This document shows, in pieces, positions 8,257 to 22,715 of a DNA stretch of 24,205 nucleotides. Below the pieces are notes generated by a model. It was not told the DNA's origin, ran no database searches, and worked only from the letters and a program-made list of their open reading frames with translations. How positions within the stretch are numbered: the first letter of the stretch is position 1; every line of letters begins with the position of its first letter. Position numbers and translations under genes: made by a program. Origin of the DNA: a virus (taxonomy: Duplodnaviria; Caudoviricetes); IMG/VR virus record IMGVR_UViG_3300047279_000032, positions 1 to 24,205 of that record; one strand, 5' to 3'.

Positions 8257-8392
8257 TTTTGTTCTCCAGTTCGGTGATCGTTGTTCTGACGTGCATGAGA
8301 GCGCGGATAGCCGCGTTGGCTTCTCGGTTGCGTATGCGTAGTTCTGCTTTGGCCACTTTGAGTTTGGCCTTCCATTGGTCAATTCGTTTCAT
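8231..8392 (-). CDS. Hypothetical coiled-coil protein (53 aa, MKRIDQWKAKLK...), not in the ORF track
   Basis: Read by hand. ATGA overlap with the glutaredoxin stop. Confidence 0.55.
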   Translation of the reverse strand: MKRIDQWKAKLKVAKAELRIRNREANAAIRALMHVRTTITELENKIERHLAKP

Positions 8393-8688
8393 TTCAATGC
8401 TTCCTGTAGTCCAGCCAAGCCGCCTACGCGCTGACCGTTGATAAAAATCTGCGGCATCTGGCGCACGCCTGTGGGCAAGTTGTCAAGTAGCGAGGGCATT
8501 GACTCAACGTCCATCTCAACATAGTTGATGTTCTTAGCCCGCAAAAGCTGTTTGGCCGCTGTGCAGTTGGGGCACTTGCGCTTGGTGTAGATAACCACTT
8601 CCATGGCGCTCCAGTAGTAGGGTTGACCTTTAAGATTGTTTTCCATGGCGATGCGGTCAAACTCGTCATCTTCGTCGGTGCGGATCAT
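8389..8688 (-). CDS. Glutaredoxin (Grx3/NrdH-like) with acidic N-terminal extension
   Basis: VVIYTKRKCPNC...VRQMPQIFINGQRVGG: CPxC active site, cis-Pro loop and GG motif. Confidence 0.85.
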   Translation of the reverse strand: MIRTDEDDEFDRIAMENNLKGQPYYWSAMEVVIYTKRKCPNCTAAKQLLRAKNINYVEMDVESMPSLLDNLPTGVRQMPQIFINGQRVGGLAGLQEALK

Positions 8689-12614: not shown

Positions 12615-14516
12615 ATGCTTTGGCTTGACTTTGAAACTCGCAGTACATGCGACCTACGCGCCAAGGGCGTGTACAACTACGCGCAAGACGCCAGCACCGA
12701 AGTGTTGTGCATGTCGTATGCGTTTGACGATGAGGATGTGATGACGTGGGTTCCGTCCCAGCCCTTCCCCGATAGCGTTCGCAACTACACCGGCCAGATC
12801 AGGGCGCATAACGCGGCGTTCGAGCGCTTGATCTTTTGGTATGTCTTACAAATAAATTTTAAACTTGAGCAGTTCTACTGCACCGCCACACAAGCCCGCG
12901 CCAACTGCGCGCCTGGCAGTCTGGAAGACGTTGGCCGCTTTGCTGGCGCGTCCATGAAGAAAGACCACAGAGGCGCGCAACTGATTCGCCTCATGTGCGT
13001 GCCGCCGTTCAAAGACTCGCCTGAACTCATGGCCGAGATGATCCAGTACTGTGAGCAGGACGTGCGCGCCATGCGTGCAATCAGTCAGGCCATGCGTGAC
13101 TTGAGCGCAGAAGAATTAGAGGACTACCACGTCAACGAGCGCATCAATGATCGCGGCGTGTTGGTCGATGTGCCGCTGTGCCATGCGGCTGTTAAGTTTG
13201 CGTCCGATGAACTGATCGAGATCGAAGAGATCGTCAAAGAAGTCACCGGCGGCGCAATCACTAGTGTTCGCTCCCCACGCATGCGTGAGTGGGTGCTTGA
13301 GCGCGTGGGTGATGAGGCTAAGAAGTTGATGGAAAAGGATGGCAAGTATTCCATCGACAAAACTGTGCGTGCCAATTTACTAACAATGGAGAACCCCGAT
13401 GAAGTCCCTGCCGATGTCCAAGAAGTTATCCAATGCGCCGACGACCTCTGGGCGTCCTCGGTGGCAAAGTTCAGCCGACTCGCGGCTTTGGCAGATGAGG
13501 AGGATGAACGAGTACGAGGAGCGTTCGTATTTGCTGGCGGCTCAGCAACAGGCCGCGCATCATCCTACGGCGCCCAAGTCCACAACTTCACCCGCAAATG
13601 CGCCGCCGAGCCAGAGGAAACCCGCAACGCCATGGTCAGAGGACACGCAATCGTGCCTCGGTATGGAAAGCGCGTTACCGATGTACTTAAAGGAATGCTC
13701 CGCCCCGCACTCATACCGGCCAAGGGAAAGCACTTCGTTGTTGCTGACTGGGCGGCTATTGAAGCGCGTGTCAACCCGTGGCTTTCCGGTCGAGGAGACG
13801 ATAAACTGGAACTATTCCGCACTGGGGAAGACGTCTATAAAGTCAATGCTGCCGCGACGTTTCACATACCCATTTCCGAGATTAACAAAGATCAGCGACA
13901 GATCGGAAAAGTTCAGGAACTTGCTTGCGGTTTTGCAGGTGGTGTTGGGGCTTTCGCTGCTATGGGCAGGGCTTACGGGATCAGTCTTCCCGAACCAGTC
14001 GCCAAGCGAATGGTTGATGGCTGGCGCCGTGCTAACCCTTGGAGCGTACCTTATTGGTCTGCGCTTGAAGAATCGTACACCCGCGCCATGAGAAACAAGG
14101 GGCGTGAATTTAAGGCTGGCCGTATAACATATTTGTTTGACGGCTTGCACTTATGGTATGCCCTACCCTCTGGCCGCATCTTGTGCTACCCCTATGCCAA
14201 ATTGGAATCGGAGGGCGTCACCTATGCCAAAGCGGCATGGAAGCCCGCGCAAGATGCAAAAGAATGGCCTAGAGCAAGACTCTGGAAAGGCTTGGCGTGT
14301 GAAAATGTGACGCAGGCGGTCGCCAATGATCTACTCAGACATTCCCTCAGACAACTCGATGACGTCGTGCTTCATGTGCATGACGAAATTGTTGTCGAGA
14401 CAGCCGACCCAGAAGCGGCAGAGAATTTAAAACGTGTGATGTGTACAGCGCCAGCGTGGGCAGATGGCTTGCCCTTGGCCGCTGAAGTTGAAACTATGAA
14501 AAGGTATGGCAAATGA
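12615..14516 (+). CDS. polA: DNA polymerase family A (APSE-like) with 3'-5' exonuclease
   Basis: Exo I WLDFET, Exo II AHNAAFER, motif A VVADWAAIEAR, motif B RQIGKVQELACGF, motif C HVHDEI. Start re-called at ATG 12615. Confidence 0.92.
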   Translation: MLWLDFETRSTCDLRAKGVYNYAQDASTEVLCMSYAFDDEDVMTWVPSQPFPDSVRNYTGQIRAHNAAFERLIFWYVLQINFKLEQFYCTATQARANCAPGSLEDVGRFAGASMKKDHRGAQLIRLMCVPPFKDSPELMAEMIQYCEQDVRAMRAISQAMRDLSAEELEDYHVNERINDRGVLVDVPLCHAAVKFASDELIEIEEIVKEVTGGAITSVRSPRMREWVLERVGDEAKKLMEKDGKYSIDKTVRANLLTMENPDEVPADVQEVIQCADDLWASSVAKFSRLAALADEEDERVRGAFVFAGGSATGRASSYGAQVHNFTRKCAAEPEETRNAMVRGHAIVPRYGKRVTDVLKGMLRPALIPAKGKHFVVADWAAIEARVNPWLSGRGDDKLELFRTGEDVYKVNAAATFHIPISEINKDQRQIGKVQELACGFAGGVGAFAAMGRAYGISLPEPVAKRMVDGWRRANPWSVPYWSALEESYTRAMRNKGREFKAGRITYLFDGLHLWYALPSGRILCYPYAKLESEGVTYAKAAWKPAQDAKEWPRARLWKGLACENVTQAVANDLLRHSLRQLDDVVLHVHDEIVVETADPEAAENLKRVMCTAPAWADGLPLAAEVETMKRYGK

Positions 14517-16810
14517 ATTTTCTTGATTTTTTAATTTCCTTGGCACCCGAGGGTGAGACTGCTTTGGTCGTGCGTCAAAAGCCCATTGGCAAAGAACTGC
14601 AATTTTTTCCTGATGGTGCGATCAAATGCACTTGGCCTGCTATGTTGCCCACCGCACGCATCAAGCCTGACTGGGCAATCTATGGCAACACTGCCAGCTT
14701 TATTGTCGACCGCTTCAAAGACGGCTATCCAAGCGCCAGCGTGGCGTGCTGTGAATATGTGCTGGTGATGGTGCTGGACGACGTGGGCGACCCTGACAAA
14801 GCTCCCAACATACCGCCGCTTGCGCCGACATGGAAAATTGAAACGTCCCCAGGTTCATTTCAGTGGGGCTATGCATTCTCAGAGCAGCCCACTAAGGCCG
14901 ACTTCGCCGCCGCCATTAAGTCCATCGCCGAGGCCGGTTACACCGACAAAGGCGCCGTTAACGCGGTGCGTAATTTCCGCTTGCCCGGCTCGATCAACTT
15001 AAAGCCAGGGCGCAACAACTTCGCCGCCAAGCTGGTTGAGTTTGAGCCTGCGCGTGAGTTTACCCTCGACGAAATTTGCACAGCGTTCAACGTAACCCCT
15101 GCGCCCGCCGACTCTATCGGCGTGCGTCCGATCCGCTTGTCAGACGACGGCGCTGATGATGTGATGGCGTGGCTGTCTAGCCATGGCGCGTTGCTGTCCA
15201 AGCCTAACCATGAGGGCTGGGCTGGCGTGATCTGTCCCAATCAGGCCGAGCATACTGACGGCAACCCCGAGGGCCGTTACATGCCCGCTAATCGTGCTTA
15301 CCGTTGCCTGCACAGCCATTGCGTTGACTTTGACTCTAATGCGTTCCTCAAGTGGGTGGCCGACCAAGGCGGCCCCAAGCATGCGCCTGGTTTGCGTGAA
15401 GAGTTGCTGACCTTGGCCATGGACCAAGCGCTGGCCAAGCTGACCCCGTCCGACATGTTTACCGATGACGCCTCCGCCGTGATCGCCGAGGTCGAGCGCA
15501 AAGAGTTGGGCCGTGTCGAAAAGGCGCAGTGGTATGAGCGCTTTGCGTACATTCAGGACGACGAGTCCTATTTTGATATGCAAGACCGCCGCGAGATCTC
15601 CCGCCAGACCTTCAACGCCTTGTTTCGTCACATCCCCTGCAAGTCAATCCACGGAAAGAACCCCAAAATTGAGGCGTCCGTGTCGTTTGACGAGAACCGC
15701 CAGAAGTACGGTGCCAAGGCCCTTGTCGGCATCACCTACGCCGCAGGCGAGTCGGTCATTGTGGCCCGTGATGGTGACCTGTTCGGTAACCGCTGGCGCG
15801 ATGCCCGGCCACCTGTGGCCGCTGGCGATGTGACCCCATGGATGGACCACTGCAAAACTCTAGTGCCCGATCAGCGCGAGTTGGACCATATCTTGAACGT
15901 GATGGCTTTTAAGGTCCAGCACCCTAACGTCAAGATCAATCACGCCGTGTTGCATGGTGGCGATCAAGGGTCCGGCAAAGATACCATGTGGGCGCCGTTC
16001 ATTTGGGCCGTGTGTGGCCCCCACCTTAAAAACCGTGGCCTGTTGGACAACGACACAATGAGCAGCCAATTTGGCTATGCCCTCGAGTCCGAGATCCTGA
16101 TTTTGAATGAGTTGAAAGAACCCGACGCCAAAGAGAGGCGCGCGCTGGCCAATAAGTTAAAACCTATCATCGCCGCGCCCCCTGAAATGTTGACAGTTAA
16201 CCGCAAGGGCTTGCACCCCTACCAAATGGCCAACCGTGTTTTCGTGCTGGCGTTCTCAAATGACCCCGTGCCGATTAGTTTAGATTCGCAGGACCGCCGT
16301 TGGATGTGCATTTGGTCCCATGCCCCGCGCATGGCCCCCGAGGCCGCCGCGCGCATGTGGGACTGGTACAAGGCCGGCGGGTTCGCCGCCGTGGGCGCGT
16401 GGCTTATGGCCCGTGACGTGTCCGCGTTCAATCCTGGCGCCGCTCCCATGATGACCGAATTCAAATTGAACTTGGTCGAGCATGGTATGAGCATGGCCGA
16501 ATCGTACCTTGTCGAGCTTATGCGCGGGCGCTTGGGTGAATTTTCTAAAGGCGTCGTGGCGTCGCCCTTCCATGCACTATGTGACCGCGTGGCGGGCGCC
16601 GCTCCCGCTGGCGTGAAGGTCCCCCAGCCCGCGTTATTGCATGCGCTCAAAGAGGCTGGCTGGCTGGATCTTGGCCGCGTGGCGTCGGGTGATTTCCCCA
16701 GCAAAAAGCACCTATTTTGCGCCCCTGACATGGTCGGCGTGAGCAAATCGGACCTTCGCCGCATGGTGGAAGACCTTCCAGCATTGCAAGCCGTCCGGCT
16801 GGTTAAATGA
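14513..16810 (+). CDS. Primase-helicase: RepB-like AEP primase, Cys/His Zn module and NrS-1-like (DUF5906) SF3 helicase
   Basis: VLDDVG...ETSPGSFQWGY...RNFRLPGS.N.K primase motifs, CP...H...CLHSHC, Walker A GDQGSGKD, Walker B ILNE, FSN motif C, DRRW. Confidence 0.85.
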   Translation: MNFLDFLISLAPEGETALVVRQKPIGKELQFFPDGAIKCTWPAMLPTARIKPDWAIYGNTASFIVDRFKDGYPSASVACCEYVLVMVLDDVGDPDKAPNIPPLAPTWKIETSPGSFQWGYAFSEQPTKADFAAAIKSIAEAGYTDKGAVNAVRNFRLPGSINLKPGRNNFAAKLVEFEPAREFTLDEICTAFNVTPAPADSIGVRPIRLSDDGADDVMAWLSSHGALLSKPNHEGWAGVICPNQAEHTDGNPEGRYMPANRAYRCLHSHCVDFDSNAFLKWVADQGGPKHAPGLREELLTLAMDQALAKLTPSDMFTDDASAVIAEVERKELGRVEKAQWYERFAYIQDDESYFDMQDRREISRQTFNALFRHIPCKSIHGKNPKIEASVSFDENRQKYGAKALVGITYAAGESVIVARDGDLFGNRWRDARPPVAAGDVTPWMDHCKTLVPDQRELDHILNVMAFKVQHPNVKINHAVLHGGDQGSGKDTMWAPFIWAVCGPHLKNRGLLDNDTMSSQFGYALESEILILNELKEPDAKERRALANKLKPIIAAPPEMLTVNRKGLHPYQMANRVFVLAFSNDPVPISLDSQDRRWMCIWSHAPRMAPEAAARMWDWYKAGGFAAVGAWLMARDVSAFNPGAAPMMTEFKLNLVEHGMSMAESYLVELMRGRLGEFSKGVVASPFHALCDRVAGAAPAGVKVPQPALLHALKEAGWLDLGRVASGDFPSKKHLFCAPDMVGVSKSDLRRMVEDLPALQAVRLVK

Positions 16811-16814
16811 GCAT

Positions 16815-16841
16815 AAAAAAAGGCCCCTGCGAAGGGGCCTT
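16815..16841 (-). terminator. Rho-independent terminator between convergent operons
   Basis: AAGGCCCCT-GCGA-AGGGGCCTT stem, followed by a T7 run on the minus strand. Confidence 0.85.
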
Positions 16842-16858: not shown

Positions 16859-16918
16859 CTAAAGGTCCAAAAGAACCGCCAGCAGCGCCCCCAGTATAAG
16901 CGCAATTAGTAGGACCAT
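16859..16918 (-). CDS. 19-aa hydrophobic peptide MVLLIALILGALLAVLLDL
   Basis: GGAGG SD upstream, ends just before the terminator. Confidence 0.4.
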   Translation of the reverse strand: MVLLIALILGALLAVLLDL

Positions 16919-17121
16919 TGCATAGCCTCCATGGCGCCTCGGTCCATTAGGCGCCGGGCCTCTGGACCTTCGGCCATGGCCATCTTATATTCGTGTTCTG
17001 ACACTTGGCCGCGCTCATGCCGATAACCCAGGTCTACATAATAGTGGTCCGCGTAGGTGAGCGGGCGCATGGGCGCGATTATCTCGCGCATAAGCGGGTG
17101 TAGATTATCCTTCGTTTTCAT
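16906..17121 (-). CDS. Hypothetical early protein (71 aa)
   Basis: GAGGA SD, overlaps the upstream stop. Confidence 0.55.
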   Translation of the reverse strand: MKTKDNLHPLMREIIAPMRPLTYADHYYVDLGYRHERGQVSEHEYKMAMAEGPEARRLMDRGAMEAMQWSY

Positions 17122-17425
17122 ATATATCCTCTTCAGTGTAGTAGGTGGTCGGCGCTTCGTTTAGATTCTCATAAAACCCGGTCAACGTGTTTTCGCCGCC
17201 GTAGGGCGCGCCCTTGCCCTTAGGCCAGCGCCCGCTATTTAACGCGTAATAACGCGTTACATAGTCCGCCGTAGAGTAAAAATAAGTAGGAAATTGGCGC
17301 TTTTCGGCGCCCTTACTTTTTACAATTTTGTGTTTACCGGTGCATTTGGCATGCTCATTCATTACCGCGCCGGCGTGGTCGTCGTTGACAATATAAATTG
17401 TCCGTCCTAGTCTCATTTTTAACAT
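17105..17425 (-). CDS. Hypothetical early protein (106 aa)
   Basis: Abuts the upstream stop, in operon. Confidence 0.55.
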   Translation of the reverse strand: MLKMRLGRTIYIVNDDHAGAVMNEHAKCTGKHKIVKSKGAEKRQFPTYFYSTADYVTRYYALNSGRWPKGKGAPYGGENTLTGFYENLNEAPTTYYTEEDIYENEG

Positions 17426-17641
17426 TTAACAGTCCCAATCTTCTACAGTTAATTTAATGTTGCAATGGTCCGCATGCGCCGCGTTGACGTGTTCGCGCAC
17501 CAGGGCGCAAATAGTATCGATTAACTCTCGGCCAACTAGGTCGTTGATTGTGAGAGTCGCGAAGGGTTCCGGGCTTATGCCCTCTGGCGTAAATGCATTA
17601 CCCCGGTGGAAGGTTAAAGTTGTTTTGTCGTAATGGTCCAT
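17426..17641 (-). CDS. Hypothetical early protein (71 aa, MDHYDKTT...)
   Basis: Start re-called at ATG 17641 after AAGGGG. Confidence 0.55.
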   Translation of the reverse strand: MDHYDKTTLTFHRGNAFTPEGISPEPFATLTINDLVGRELIDTICALVREHVNAAHADHCNIKLTVEDWDC

Positions 17642-17654
17642 AATTTTCCCCTTT

Positions 17655-17885
17655 TTAAATAGTGCAGCAGCCACAGCACGGCGCGTCGATGCACCGGCCG
17701 CGCGGGTTCCGGTGGAATACGGTCGCGCCGGTTTCACCGTAGAAAATAACGCGAGAGTCGCCCGGCTCTTCCAGCCATGCCCGGCGCGCGATAGTGTCAA
17801 ATTTAATATCATCGCCGGGGTTTATCCTGGCGCCGGACCGGCTGCAATAACCGGGGAATTTTGCGCGCATGCTTTTAATGGTCAT
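17655..17885 (-). CDS. Cys-rich early protein ending GRCIDAPCCGCC
   Basis: Start re-called at ATG 17885. AKFPGYCSRSG...I.PGD N-terminus and a C-terminal Cys cluster. Confidence 0.65.
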   Translation of the reverse strand: MTIKSMRAKFPGYCSRSGARINPGDDIKFDTIARRAWLEEPGDSRVIFYGETGATVFHRNPRGRCIDAPCCGCCTI

Positions 17886-18108
17886 ATATAACCCCATTGG
17901 CTAAAATTTTAGTTAAGTTGGCCGCCGGTACATACCGGACCGTGCCACCGTTTTCATGGGCGCGCCATGTACCCGCAAAATCAACGGCCACTACCGGACC
18001 GTCAACGGCCACCACGACGCCGCGCGCGTCGGCCGTGGCCTTGTCATGGCCCACGCGCCGAACCACGGCGCGCGCGAATGCTACCTTGTCATTTACAGAA
18101 AATTTCAT
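17875..18108 (-). CDS. Small SH3-like beta protein (77 aa, MKFSVNDKVAF...)
   Basis: GGAG SD, ATGA overlap. F.V.D.V...G.VV.V...V.V.F...NL pattern. Confidence 0.55.
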   Translation of the reverse strand: MKFSVNDKVAFARAVVRRVGHDKATADARGVVVAVDGPVVAVDFAGTWRAHENGGTVRYVPAANLTKILANGVIYDH

Positions 18109-18863
18109 GCTGCTACTCCAATTGATATAACCCGGCGCTGGTGGCCGCTTGCATGGTCCGCGATAACGATATCGCGCGCTTGCTTGCTGGTGCCAGCGCA
18201 TAATAAGCAACTGGCGCATGTTGCGCGCTTGCCACCTTCGGCGCTGGCCGGGCATGTTGTCTCGCCAGCTTGCTTATCGACGCCGATCGACACCCGAAAA
18301 ACCCGCATGCCTAACAAATTAGCATGCGCCGCGTCGTCGATAGAATCGGCGCTGGCCATGAGCAAGGGCGCCCATGCTGCATGGTCAAAATTAGGGTTTT
18401 TCCATGCATGCGAATAACCCGAATGACCGGCCACAAATTTAACCAGCGCTTGCCAATATTCGACCGGCGCCGCGAACGGGTCCCCATATGTACCGATTCT
18501 CAAGAGTAAACCGGCGATCGCGCGCGCGATAGTGTCGGCGCTGGCGCGTTCGTACCGGCCGCGCTTATATGCTTCAAAAACCGAACGGACCGAACGGCCG
18601 ACATTTACATAACAAGGCGGTTCGTCGCTTTGGCCGGTTTTGATCAAATACGGCCGGTGGCCACAATCGCCGCAAATCGACGCGTCGTCGCCGGTACGAA
18701 GCGCTTCGGTCGGCGCGATATCGGACCGGATAATAAACGTCTGCACCATGGCGCCAGTTTTCGCGTTATCGGACCCGTCGATTTTATTGACAATGACGAC
18801 GATCGGCGAACCGTCGATCATAGAAGGGCCTTCGTACAAAATATAGCCTAGGGGTTTTTTCAT
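18105..18863 (-). CDS. GP88-like / radical-SAM-like Fe-S protein
   Basis: NAKTG.M, CGDC-x14-CYV, LRIGTYGDP, GYSH, LMASAD, CPAS...CASCLLC. Confidence 0.6.
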   Translation of the reverse strand: MKKPLGYILYEGPSMIDGSPIVVIVNKIDGSDNAKTGAMVQTFIIRSDIAPTEALRTGDDASICGDCGHRPYLIKTGQSDEPPCYVNVGRSVRSVFEAYKRGRYERASADTIARAIAGLLLRIGTYGDPFAAPVEYWQALVKFVAGHSGYSHAWKNPNFDHAAWAPLLMASADSIDDAAHANLLGMRVFRVSIGVDKQAGETTCPASAEGGKRATCASCLLCAGTSKQARDIVIADHASGHQRRVISIGVAA

Positions 18864-18873
18864 GGCCAGCCCC

Positions 18874-18969
18874 TTATTTTGTTAAGACGTCAAAATAAGC
18901 CAGGGCGCCGATAAGCAATGCGCCAGCGATGATGGCCACGGCCAGTAGATCTAATAATGCTTTTTTCAT
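18874..18969 (-). CDS. 31-aa single-TM peptide MKKALLDLLAVAIIAGALLIGALAYFDVLTK, not in the ORF track
   Basis: Preceded by the repeated GTAAAGGCAAAA leader. Confidence 0.6.
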   Translation of the reverse strand: MKKALLDLLAVAIIAGALLIGALAYFDVLTK

Positions 18970-18973
18970 GTTG

Positions 18974-19293
18974 TTTTGCCTTTACTTTATTGAATTAGAT
19001 TGAAGCGGCCGCGTCGCGAAGCTGCGCCAGCATCGAACGGTCAACGGCGCCGTCATATTGATTCGCGTCATAAGACGCCATAATCTCGCGCTGGGTGAAA
19101 TAACCTAATTCCAGCACGTCCGCGCACGTTAACGCGCCGGCGCTTATGACGCCGTCAATTTGACGGTCAACGTCGACAAAAACAATGTCGCCGTTTTCTT
19201 GCAAGCTGGCCGCAATTCGCTGGCCATTGGCCGTATATTCGCGGCCGGTATTGAATTTGAGAATTGTCATTTTTTGCCTTTACTTTATTGAAT
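18974..19293. repeat. Perfect 22-bp direct repeat TTTTGCCTTTACTTTATTGAAT (18974-18995, 19272-19293); partial third copy at 19513-19530
   Basis: Read directly. Each copy contains the RBS of a minus-strand gene. Confidence 0.9.
18995..19270 (-). CDS. Hypothetical early protein (91 aa, FNTGREYTANGQRI)
   Basis: AAAGG RBS within the repeat, bracketed by the 22-bp repeats. Confidence 0.65.
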   Translation of the reverse strand: MTILKFNTGREYTANGQRIAASLQENGDIVFVDVDRQIDGVISAGALTCADVLELGYFTQREIMASYDANQYDGAVDRSMLAQLRDAAASI

Positions 19294-19322
19294 GATGGCC
19301 AGCGCGAAGCTGGCCGGTTTAA

Positions 19323-19511
19323 TTAAGCGATGAATTCGGGATGATTTGTGACGCCGAAAGCCAGGGCATGCGCGCGAAGCGCTTCGGCGCTTTTCTTAGA
19401 ACGGGCCGCGCGAATAAGCGCAGAGATAGCGCGCGCGACATAGTCAGGGCCTAAGCCAGCAGCGCTATATTTTGTAATGATTTGCAATTCGCGAATTTCA
19501 GATTTGGTCAT
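19323..19511 (-). CDS. Hypothetical early protein (62 aa), first gene of the leftward operon
   Basis: GAAAGG RBS, directly downstream of the promoter. Confidence 0.65.
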   Translation of the reverse strand: MTKSEIRELQIITKYSAAGLGPDYVARAISALIRAARSKKSAEALRAHALAFGVTNHPEFIA

Positions 19512-19563
19512 TTTTTGCCTTTCGTTTACTGTAGATTTTCCCTTTTCGCCGAAGCGAGCTTAG

Positions 19564-19591
19564 AGTGTAACAAATTCTTTTGCATTGTCAA
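19564..19591 (-). promoter_or_regulatory. Strong sigma70 early promoter (TTGACA-16-TACACT, extended -10 TG)
   Basis: Minus strand reads TTGACA atgcaaaagaatttgt TACACT, with A-rich sequence upstream. Confidence 0.8.
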
Positions 19592-19621
19592 CAACTATTT
19601 TCAATAACCCTTGCGACAATG

Positions 19622-20008
19622 TGGCTTTGGGTCTTTTGGGTCACGGTTAGGCCATGCTTTAAAAATGAATGACCCAAGGGCAAAGCGGCGCCAGCGCTAG
19701 AGAATTTGGGGTTTTAGGTCATTTGGGTCATGAAATACAAAAAACAAAATTGACAATTTTTATATAAGGGTTAATACCTATATGACTGTAAGGCGGCGCT
19801 GACACCTCGTCCGGCGCCGATTTTTGTAGCGTGACAAAATGACCCAAATGACCCAAAGCTTTAAAGCTTCGCGCGCGCCAGATCCATGCTTTTAGGTCAT
19901 TTGGGTCACGTAAAAAACAATGACCCAAATGACCCAAAGCCAGCCAGCCACTGGCGCCAGCTTGCAATTTAAAACCGTGACCCAAATGACCCAAATGACC
20001 CAAAGCCA
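19622..20008. repeat. Array of about 14 9-bp TGACCCAAA units in tandem groups of alternating orientation (putative origin or genome-end signal)
   Basis: Reverse copies at 19626, 19635, 19713, 19722, 19891, 19900. Forward copies at 19670, 19840, 19849, 19921, 19930, 19978, 19987, 19996. Confidence 0.9.
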
Positions 20009-20239
20009 TGCGGACATTTTGCCCTGGTGCATGCCGGCGCTGGCTGCAACATGTGGCATGGTGGCCGGTGGCCGCTGGCCGGTCCGCCGGCTGGCCGCTG
20101 GCAATACCCACAATGCAAATAGGGGTACCCGTAGGGCCGGCGGCACAGGGCCGGCAGAAACGTACGGCTTGTGAACAATTTTTATTTTTTAGTTTTTTGT
20201 TATAAACTCGCACCCACGTGCAAACAGCATGGAGAACAA

Positions 20240-20689
20240 ATGTTCCACTCGATTCCATTTACACCGCGCAAGGTCGAAGCGACCGAATCGCGTCTGAAGG
20301 CTGTCTATGACGCAGCCAAGCTAGGCCTCAAAGGCGACGCACTCGCATTGGCCGCAGGCATGCTCCCCACCGAATACCGACAACTCACGCAACTTGACCC
20401 CGTGGTGGAACTCGCCGCGCAAAAGGGCAAAGCAGACGCTGAGATAGAGATGGCCAACGTCCTCCGCAGTGCCGCCCTCCAAGGCGACGCTAAGTCGGCG
20501 TTAGAAGTCTTGAAGCACCAGCACGGCTGGGTGGCCAAGCAGGCTATCTCGGTTGAGGTCGACCAGCGCATTTCCATCACTGGCGCACTGGCCGAGGCGC
20601 AAAAGCGTGCCTTAGAGGCTATTGACGTGAGTGACGCCCAGATTATTGAACCATCGGTACAACATGCAATCGACCATATACAGCGCTGA
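20240..20689 (+). CDS. terS: Terminase small subunit
   Basis: Start re-called at ATG 20240 after GGAG. HTH-like N-terminus, helical, overlaps the terL start. Confidence 0.7.
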   Translation: MFHSIPFTPRKVEATESRLKAVYDAAKLGLKGDALALAAGMLPTEYRQLTQLDPVVELAAQKGKADAEIEMANVLRSAALQGDAKSALEVLKHQHGWVAKQAISVEVDQRISITGALAEAQKRALEAIDVSDAQIIEPSVQHAIDHIQR

Positions 20690-22342: not shown

Positions 22343-22485
22343 TGCCACTCGTCAAGTCAAAATCACCCGAAGCCTTCCGCAAGAACGTCAAAGCTGAAGT
22401 GGCGGCTGGCAAGCCCGTGAAACAAGCGGTTGCGATTGCGTATTCCGTCAAGCGCGAAGCGCAGAAACCAATGAAGAAAAAATGA
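22342..22485 (+). CDS. Basic micro-protein (47 aa, MPLVKSKS...GKPVKQAVAIAYS)
   Basis: TAATG and ATGA coupling. QAVAIA motif is common in phage head modules. Confidence 0.65.
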   Translation: MPLVKSKSPEAFRKNVKAEVAAGKPVKQAVAIAYSVKREAQKPMKKK

Positions 22486-22715
22486 AAGCACTCCAAGACT
22501 GCATCATCATTGAGCGCGATGTTGAAAAACATCCCTTGTTTGTATTGCCTGCGAACTCACAGACCGAAACTGGCGTGGCCATCGCTGTCGGGCCAAAATG
22601 CCTAGACATCAAGGTCGGTGACCATGTATACTTTGGCGTAGGGCAAGAATTTAAACAAGACGGCAAGATGTATGTCGTCATGCGTGAGCCTCATATTTTA
22701 GGGGTTTTGGAATGA
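22482..22715 (+). CDS. groES: Co-chaperonin GroES (Cpn10)-like protein
   Basis: MKALQDCIII...GVAIAVGP...IKVGDHVYF...DGKMYVVMREPHILGV. Confidence 0.8.
   Translation: MKALQDCIIIERDVEKHPLFVLPANSQTETGVAIAVGPKCLDIKVGDHVYFGVGQEFKQDGKMYVVMREPHILGVLE

Follow-up and report, generated by a model that had tools for sequence, protein, structure and literature searches.

Why does a phage that avoids palindromic words in most of its DNA fill one likely early segment with them, and does this segment follow its position or one of its genes? The question is raised by the virus record IMGVR_UViG_3300047279_000032 of IMG/VR (Duplodnaviria, Caudoviricetes), whose positions 1 to 24,205 were analysed; this whole stretch is called the window below. 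Just upstream of the probable gene for the small terminase subunit (terS) lies a leader of small leftward genes, which is rich in palindromes and poor in AG- and GAG-type words on both strands. The signature is real, strong and heritable, and among relatives it accompanies a gene of the Gp88/DUF7227 superfamily. A preliminary description of the window had proposed an anti-restriction leader, purged of asymmetric target sites until its own products disable the host defence. This reading stands in part: site depletion, an inward promoter, bias in the syntenic region of relatives and homologues in T7-like phages favour it, but the rule that the bias follows position does not hold, and the sharp edge at terS is no evidence of a genome end.

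Size and limits of the bias

The counts of the preliminary description proved to be accurate. CCGG occurs exactly 38 times in 16950-20155 (11.85/kb) versus 29 times in the other 21 kb (1.38/kb), and any stretch of 3,206 nt elsewhere in the window holds at most 9 (mean 4.3), with 15 predicted from base composition alone. GGCC (13.1 vs 6.3 per kb, segment versus remainder), GCGC (25.3 vs 11.5) and CGCG (19.0 vs 6.5) are dense as well. GAG/CTC is found 13 times in 17640-19570, which is 6.7/kb versus 21.4/kb in the portal gene, and CCTC/GAGG is absent from 17600-19800, where about 12 are expected. In 17600-19600 the 4-bp and 6-bp palindromes reach 2.16 and 2.72 times the base-composition expectation, versus 1.00 and 0.65 in 31 distant windows. 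Elsewhere in the window 6-bp palindromes are avoided, as is usual (CGGCCG 0 vs 9.5 expected). The bias is broader than first described, as all four mixed dinucleotide classes of weak (W) and strong (S) bases are reduced, AG/CT most, and WW/SS steps are raised.

With an order-3 Markov model trained on the leaders of relatives the biased segment ends at 20207, just before terS (start 20240), and it spans eight genes and not the supposed ten or so open reading frames (ORFs). In the 3' half of the primase gene palindrome avoidance is still released, but more weakly.

An artefact of GC content or codon usage is excluded: the GC content is ordinary (0.48-0.56) and the bias survives amino-acid and codon correction. 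The leader genes contain 322 palindromic 4-mers versus 180 expected from the codon usage of the other genes and 209 from their own; the corresponding numbers are 30 versus 9 and 17 for CCGG, and 200 versus 325 and 274 for GAG-type 3-mers. Selection at the mRNA level (Shine-Dalgarno or RNase sites) is ruled out because both strands are depleted. DNA bending can be dismissed, as no 10-bp helical period occurs in the segment; so can hairpins or template switching, the enrichment being confined to palindromes with gap 0 without an excess of hairpins, and avoidance of UV lesions, with TT and AAA enriched and not depleted. A separate palindrome peak (4-bp observed/expected ratio, O/E, 1.8) was seen in MW202483 (locus L082, around 36000-37000), inside the DNA polymerase region and far from any early operon.

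The bias accompanies a Gp88/DUF7227-like gene

From 345 related loci 224 with a complete leader were retained, and 157 remained after dereplication. A leader was called biased at a 6-bp palindrome O/E of at least 1.25, and gene-plus (n=96) or gene-less (n=61) according to the presence of a Gp88/DUF7227-like gene. Biased are 92 of the 96 gene-plus and none of the 61 gene-less leaders. Thus the bias does occur in the syntenic region of relatives, namely those with the gene, but it does not follow position rather than gene as had been supposed, and the unbiased gene-less relatives rule out a pure position effect. Samples that had not been fetched by means of the gene agree (gene-plus versus gene-less: 14/14 vs 0/23 in a scan with the large terminase subunit, TerL, and 9/9 vs 0/50 in a shared-gene scan). 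In the closest clade the O/E of 39 gene-plus leaders (1.47-2.56) does not overlap with that of 39 gene-less ones (0.51-1.15), and the syntenic region is bimodal among terminase-matched relatives; locus L003 has a TerL 99% identical to that of the window and no bias. Eight loci with TerL 82-84% identical (L034, L035, L037, L039, L045, L062, L064 and L065) have a wholly different upstream replication module and layout, and no bias.

Strongly biased leaders carry in the same slot one of four distant subfamilies: the window type (phrog_2554), DUF7227 proper or one of two types of Pfam GP88 (PF17338), so that Pfam GP88 members too sit in biased leaders. Each of the 80 loci retrieved with the window protein contains ten or more 6-bp palindromes in the first 500 nt of the gene (mean 19.9), versus 3-5 far upstream. 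The 80 DUF7227 loci show the same 4-mer spectrum as the window-type leaders (r 0.91, from k-mer pools using 49/58 and 31/69 leaders), though the subfamilies are only about 21% identical. In genes common to both leader types, 6-bp palindromes are 3-10 times denser beside a Gp88-like gene.

Which words are depleted

Restriction sites were taken from REBASE 404 as shipped in Biopython, with four degenerate words excluded that we take to be modification-dependent. The postulated depletion of asymmetric sites of the N6-methyladenine (m6A) type was found on both strands: the median O/E of asymmetric REBASE 5-7-mers is 0.58 in gene-plus and 0.88 in gene-less leaders, compared to 1.00 in the background. 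In the same order the values are 0.38, 0.64 and 0.78 for sites ending in AG, and 0.49, 0.63 and 0.81 for bipartite sites. The depletion is double-stranded, short-range and strongest at the Gp88-like gene. Local depletion of restriction sites therefore applies to asymmetric ones; palindromic sites are not depleted. Given the 4-mer content, 6-bp palindromes are neutral (0.96 and 0.86 vs 0.65 and 0.54), 4-bp palindromes reach 1.20-1.25 times the order-2 expectation, and the CCGG share of GC-only 4-mers is about neutral (0.067 vs 0.022 elsewhere). The apparent enrichment is thus a released avoidance together with W/S clumping and a modest true excess. A test for polarity of the AG context (a long 5' arm, as in MmeI and BREX sites) was uninformative, as only adjacent bases differ.

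Selection, mutation and an equilibrium model

On terminal branches GAG-type words are gained by synonymous change at 0.54-0.70 of the neutral rate in leader genes and at 0.89-0.93 in the TerL gene (terL), and losses of these words in leader genes are near neutral, which indicates purifying selection and not destructive mutation. Losses of GC-only palindromes run at 0.31-0.51 in leader genes versus 1.12-1.23 in terL. All these rates come from parsimony over recombining genes and from tens to hundreds of events. In an exact equilibrium model, which contains no phage sequence and only a penalty on 368 asymmetric sites, 6-bp palindromes rise 1.5-1.95-fold, CCGG 1.9-2.75-fold and GCGC 2.4-3.4-fold. 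The modelled shift correlates with the observed one at r 0.45-0.60, compared to 0.19-0.48 for shuffled and 0.05-0.21 for random sites.

Linkage and recombination

In the terL tree gene-plus and gene-less phages are intermixed, and nine of ten sister groups, read by eye from the tree, agree with the association of gene and bias. In the primase tree, which covers 78 of 140 loci, gene-plus leaders are likewise spread over several clades, with unbiased gene-less sisters next to them. In a piecewise comparison only 0-3% of the gene-plus pieces of primase 15173-16810 have a gene-less nearest neighbour, versus 25-80% for polymerase, exonuclease, ssb, terS, terL and portal. The linked block thus spans the start of terS to mid-primase, and terS itself recombines freely between the leader types. 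Within this block the effect fades: the leader median is 2.16 vs 0.76 (gene-plus vs gene-less), and the primase falls from 1.4 to 1.0 vs 0.4-0.8.

The sharp edge at terS coincides with the edge of the linkage block and is therefore no evidence of a genome end. No pile-up of ends was seen in the contigs of 4 of 22 sequencing runs, contig ends across 197 loci do not cluster, and the accessible parts of the papers on DSL-LC05 and Ab31 state no termini. On ejection the leader would probably enter first.

The Gp88-like protein

The window protein matches phrog_2554 at E 2.7e-61, and phrog_2554 also matches the DUF7227 member of locus L029 (E 1.6e-44). With DUF7227 proper (PF23872) it scores 19.2 bits, below the gathering cut-off of 27 (E 1e-3, residues 202-245 only), and judged by its sequence the window subfamily is a sister of DUF7227 and not a member. 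A first structure model found DUF7227 in BFVD at E 2.6e-6 and GP88 at E 3e-3 or weaker. NxKxG, C...CY, R...GD, CPA, CxxCxLC and H are invariant in both the window and the DUF7227 subfamilies. PHROG score, conserved motifs and predicted structure together place the protein in the Gp88/DUF7227 superfamily. With its profile the window subfamily retrieves 3,559 clusters at 50% identity; its residues include the invariant C64, C67, C84-Y85, the C-terminal C204, C216, C219, C222 and H237, and NxKxG.

The structure model (pLDDT 93) predicts an alpha/beta fold. The top 12 solved structural neighbours (VIA) are all radical S-adenosylmethionine (SAM) enzymes, the best being QueE with Z 5.0 and a root-mean-square deviation of 5.6 over 159 aligned residues; Z 8 is the level called meaningful by the comparison tool, and all neighbours have Z of at most 5.0. 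Radical SAM profiles of Pfam and NCBIfam gave no match at E 0.1, nor did a sequence search of the PDB give any. Neither SAM lyase among the listed profile and fold matches nor a nuclease fold among the listed structural neighbours was found. The protein is thus weakly suggested by its model to be radical-SAM-like, and we do not count it as a member of that family. The literature, with few subscription papers and no supplements covered, gave no function for Gp88/DUF7227 and no account of the inverse signature.

Leaders without the gene

Gene-less leaders encode small proteins of acidic character. The most frequent family, strongly acidic and 110 amino acids (aa) long (L006:2856-3188, minus strand, and 31 other leaders), occurs in 32 of 61 gene-less and 0 of 96 gene-plus leaders, thus never together with a Gp88-like gene; profile and homology searches gave it no named relative. 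Two more such families are distributed 26 vs 1 and 11 vs 0. From their charge one may guess that these acidic proteins are DNA mimics. Genes for C5-cytosine methyltransferases lie in the early operon of 7 of 61 gene-less and 0 of 96 gene-plus leaders, for example L003:4121-4738 (minus strand), and another is found in MW202483 (L082:30041-31018). Classic Type IIP sites are strongly avoided by gene-less leaders (GGWCC 0.07, CCWGG 0.17), versus 1.40 and 0.62 in gene-plus leaders.

Organisation of the early region

According to profile searches the window derives from a podovirus whose portal and ejection proteins are P22-like and whose replication set comprises PolA, primase-helicase, DUF2800 exonuclease and a helicase; the set we would call APSE-like and the helicase presumably SNF2-type. 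Best matches come from freshwater metagenomes, and the family is large, as about 3,500 IMG/VR stretches match the window terminase. This terminase has a likeness of 38% to those of epsilon15 and phiV10, phages that package by the headful mechanism. The region is probably a leftward early-type operon with an origin in a P22/APSE-like freshwater podovirus (Table 1). The strong promoter of the preliminary description is present as a match to the sigma70 consensus and points away from terS, through the small genes; the promoter scan gave 5 sites in the window vs 4.1 in shuffles.

Table 1. Features of the early region of the window, with the distribution of gene families over gene-plus and gene-less leaders.
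Feature	Position	Strand	Remarks
Biased segment, palindrome-rich, AG/GAG-poor on both strands	17006..20207		maximal-scoring segment, order-3 Markov model
Primase-helicase	14513..16810	+	3' two-thirds linked to leader type, palindrome avoidance released
Intrinsic-terminator-like hairpin	16820..16841	-	between operon and convergent primase gene; sequence scan
Operon of eight leftward ORFs	16906..19511	-	behind sigma70-like promoter
71-aa ORF, last of operon, common to both leader types	16906..17121	-	6-bp palindromes 33.2 vs 9.2/kb (gene-plus vs gene-less)
106-aa ORF, common to both leader types	17105..17425	-	6-bp palindromes 34.3 vs 10.2/kb (gene-plus vs gene-less)
71-aa ORF, common to both leader types	17426..17641	-	6-bp palindromes 27.8 vs 6.3/kb (gene-plus vs gene-less)
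Small protein with Cys-rich C-terminus (phrog_2656/5664)	17655..17897	-	56/96 gene-plus, 0/61 gene-less leaders
77-aa ORF, overlaps stop of Gp88-like gene	17875..18108	-	11 gene-plus, 0 gene-less leaders
Gp88/DUF7227-superfamily gene, 252 aa, Cys-rich, candidate anti-restriction enzyme	18105..18863	-	phrog_2554; bias tracks this gene
91-aa ORF	18995..19270	-	10 gene-plus, 7 gene-less leaders
62-aa ORF, first of operon	19323..19511	-	family in 31 gene-plus, 2 gene-less leaders
Promoter, sigma70-like, TTGACA-16-TACACT with TG, pointing leftwards into operon, away from terS	19564..19591	-	10/12 consensus matches; consensus match only
Array of about 11 TGACCCAAA-type repeats, both orientations, just upstream of terS	19620..20010		probable replication-origin iterons
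Probable terminase small subunit (terS)	20240..20689	+	position and synteny with DSL-LC05; bias ends at its start

The repeat words of relatives (GACCCAA, GTCCACA, GACTCA, GCCAACA) largely track the clade of the primase C-terminus; because the word follows the primase clade, the array probably consists of origin iterons bound by the primase-helicase. The Cys-rich protein next to the Gp88-like gene ends in a CxxxxCCGCC motif and is possibly its metal-binding partner. A 22-nt repeat (18974-18995, 19272-19293 and 19513-19534) forms the translation-start region of three successive early genes, where AAAGG and not GGAG is found, and may be a joint for cassette exchange. A GroES-like co-chaperonin gene (22482-22715, plus strand) stands directly before the portal gene, as it does in DSL-LC05, and a glutaredoxin/thioredoxin-like gene (8389-8688, minus strand) in the leftward cluster after the helicase.

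Explanation and rivals

We see about an even chance that an early Gp88/DUF7227-like enzyme neutralises SAM-dependent defences with asymmetric sites, and that the leader is purged until this enzyme is made. Transcription of the operon by host RNA polymerase would begin at the promoter 19591. In a manner comparable to that of T3 SAM lyase, the enzyme, whose two conserved sets of cysteines are predicted to carry Fe-S clusters, would bind SAM, destroy it or put SAM-dependent enzymes out of action in some other way. Its targets would be Type I, Type IIG, Type III and BREX; Type IIG enzymes are SAM-dependent too. DNA entering before the enzyme is made would have to be without sites. As defence enzymes swap specificities, selection would act on the whole word class, leaving palindromes and pure W or S runs as safe space, and this pressure would outweigh the ordinary avoidance of Type IIP sites. 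The signal would accrue only in DNA which stays linked to the gene, from the start of terS to mid-primase, and fade downstream. More tentatively, and with slightly less than even confidence, we suggest that Gp88/DUF7227 is a widespread, so far unrecognised Fe-S and radical-SAM-derived class of anti-restriction proteins against such defences, being one of two interchangeable leader strategies (enzyme versus acidic mimics) and leaving the inverse, palindrome-rich signature.

Several observations weigh against the enzyme hypothesis. Four gene-plus leaders are unbiased (0.88-1.21), and two loci without the gene in a 2.5-kb interval, L078 and L068, are raised (1.53 and 1.27). Most of the 39 close gene-plus leaders belong to a single primase clade and have the same repeat word, so there are far fewer independent events than leaders, perhaps five to ten primase clades and not 96 origins. 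Recombination is sufficient to explain the sharp edge at terS, which may be a boundary of such exchange. Letter-shuffled REBASE sites are depleted too (0.65 in gene-plus leaders, 0.80 in gene-less leaders, 0.90 in the background), and two distal genes common to both leader types show a 3-4-fold difference in palindromes but hardly any in asymmetric sites (0.93 vs 1.02; 0.91 vs 0.87). Losses of GC-only palindromes are suppressed even without AG changes, which may be selection for the palindromes themselves. The model never reproduces GGCC, and with a background Type IIP cost kept it brings 6-bp palindromes only to 0.9-1.1; because it yields much of the gain and yet misses GGCC, palindrome enrichment as a by-product of the purge is plausible but incomplete. 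Among ten other phage records with a homologue palindromes peak at it in only three, with a weak rise in three and a flat course in four. The early regions of T3, T7 and phiKMV are mildly depleted of GAG-type words with no homologue annotated there, so this part of the signature is not specific to the gene. The radical SAM fold match is weak (best Z 5.0), Foldseek searches of the PDB with both models gave no match at E 0.001, and in place of the canonical CxxxCxxC motif the protein has three cysteines with non-canonical spacing (C64-x2-C67-x16-C84-Y). Radical SAM enzymes are slow consumers of SAM, and the Gp88/DUF7227 families have no annotated function or known activity.

The gene could also be a mere passenger. 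Leader, origin and primase might form a block in lineages adapted to hosts with many asymmetric systems and few Type IIP enzymes, in which the Gp88-like gene or one of its neighbours, for instance the Cys-rich ORF 17655-17897, is a marker only; we regard this as rather unlikely. The bias does cover a linked block, close gene-plus phages share primase clade and repeat word, and the homologues in AM24, Che12, CRP-345 and PAK_P1 lack a palindrome excess. However, the spread of gene-plus leaders over several primase clades, with unbiased gene-less sisters next to them, and the agreement of nine of ten terL sister groups speak for the gene, and three to four subfamilies occupy the same slot with the same spectrum. 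The leader types exchange terS, terL, portal and polymerase freely by recombination, which implies shared hosts, and the bias peaks at the gene and declines inside the linked block. The Cys-rich ORF is present in only 56 of the 96 gene-plus leaders. Protection of the DNA is conceivable, though we consider it quite unlikely: the protein could modify progeny DNA (or boost host methylation) at palindromes containing C or G, whereupon the Type IIP cost would be lost genome-wide and this become visible only in linked DNA, with dense modifiable palindromes shielding the leader. The neutrality of 6-bp palindromes given the 4-mer content would fit, as would the release that runs through the linked primase with asymmetric words little changed, the slight relaxation of terS/terL (0.53 vs 0.40) and the conservation of GC palindromes. 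As far as the consulted part of one survey goes, hydroxymethylase phages likewise lose Type II site avoidance (PMC6286503). But the GAG/AG purge and its peak at the gene would be left unexplained, no modification pathway is annotated in the complete genome of DSL-LC05, which has a DUF7227 gene, or seen in the 24-kb window, neither CpG nor CCGG decay occurs, and the model with asymmetric sites only already gives much of the palindrome gain.

That the protein takes over the host by damage to, or modification of, AG/GAG-rich words in its DNA, so that the phage DNA closest to the gene avoids them, appears very unlikely to us. The double-stranded, short-range depletion with its maximum at the gene is what such self-avoidance predicts; it does not account for the released palindromes, the depleted words fit asymmetric REBASE sites better than their shuffles, and the structural neighbours include no nuclease fold. 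Least credible is a local mutational bias without selection (oxidative or UV damage, template switching, origin-proximal single strands), although the segment flanks a probable origin and the depleted words are purine runs with G: gains of these words fall short of neutrality and losses come close to it, TT and AAA are enriched, only gap-0 palindromes and no hairpins are in excess, and gene-less relatives share the origin layout without the bias.

If the enzyme hypothesis is true, DNA composition would show which class of defence an early gene of unknown function counters, and the signature could serve to recognise first-entering DNA and anti-defence genes by their sequence only. A large function-less phage family gains a testable function, a class-wide local avoidance of asymmetric sites emerges that whole-genome surveys missed, and the rule that phages avoid palindromes is inverted in this leader. 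Natural gene-plus and gene-less relatives with near-identical terminases offer a ready comparison.

Comparison with known systems

Homologues of the Gp88-like gene occur in phages of Mycobacterium, Gordonia, Klebsiella, Pseudomonas, Caulobacter and Roseobacter. In Caulobacter phage S2B the homologue lies upstream of the RNA polymerase gene, about 1 kb into the annotated terminal repeat and, according to the annotation, at the virion end that enters first. It is similarly placed in jiawei and CRP-403; in Che12 it is found near the right end. The parallel to a T7-type leader drawn in the preliminary description is thus supported by homologues at the position of gene 0.3 in T7-like records. In eight of ten other phage records the GAG-type words of the fetched sequence are at their scarcest, or close to it, around the homologue. 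In the unrelated freshwater phage MW202796 (L356:15863-17411) a GP88 gene stands directly upstream of the anti-restriction gene ArdC.

Ocr and ArdA are DNA mimics which act early against restriction. With these proteins and ArdC the system would share an early anti-restriction role, and it is further linked to them by the GP88 gene beside ArdC and by the acidic small proteins in gene-less leaders; unlike Ocr and ArdA the window protein lacks an acidic character, with a net charge of about -0.02 per residue, and has an enzyme-like predicted fold. The leader of T3 with gene 0.3 resembles the proposed one in having an early enzyme in first-entering DNA against SAM-dependent defences, and homologues share this slot in T7-like records. 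The first 2 kb of T3 show a like but mild composition (4-bp palindromes z +2.7, GAG-type words z -2.1), compared to z +17 and -6 in the window. The window protein (252 aa, Cys-rich, radical-SAM-like) differs from T3 SAM lyase, which is absent from the listed matches in sequence, family or fold. According to the accessible text of the respective studies, Type I restriction-modification and BREX are SAM-dependent and defeated by T3 SAM lyase (bioRxiv 10.1101/2023.02.27.530186), and SAM dependence is stated for Type I, BREX and Type III (PMC6286503).

The same survey, in its consulted part, reports no avoidance of Type I or IIG sites over whole phage genomes and the loss of Type II site avoidance in hydroxymethylase phages (PMC6286503), and an account of plasmid leading regions, as far as seen, describes palindrome depletion in some of them (bioRxiv 10.1101/2025.04.03.647016). 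Outside its leader the window follows such genome-wide avoidance, as orthodox Type II avoidance predicts for 6-bp palindromes, but the leader itself shows the inverse of what these sources, in the parts consulted, describe. Also comparable are Murciavirus, whose first-injected region is free of the sites of the Type I system Mme2I (PMC12455610), and T5/BF23 with their site-free first-step DNA (PMC10644984). As proposed for the window, selection on restriction sites appears from the accessible parts of both papers to be concentrated in an early first-entering segment, with sites tolerated elsewhere; unlike in the window, single named motifs are concerned, and T5-type leaders must also be without palindromic Type II sites. 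Site-free first-entering DNA is thus established. What is new is a form of anti-restriction leader for which a candidate enzyme family can be named: the whole class of asymmetric words is reduced in it, palindromes reach or exceed the neutral level, and the state changes with the presence of a single gene family.

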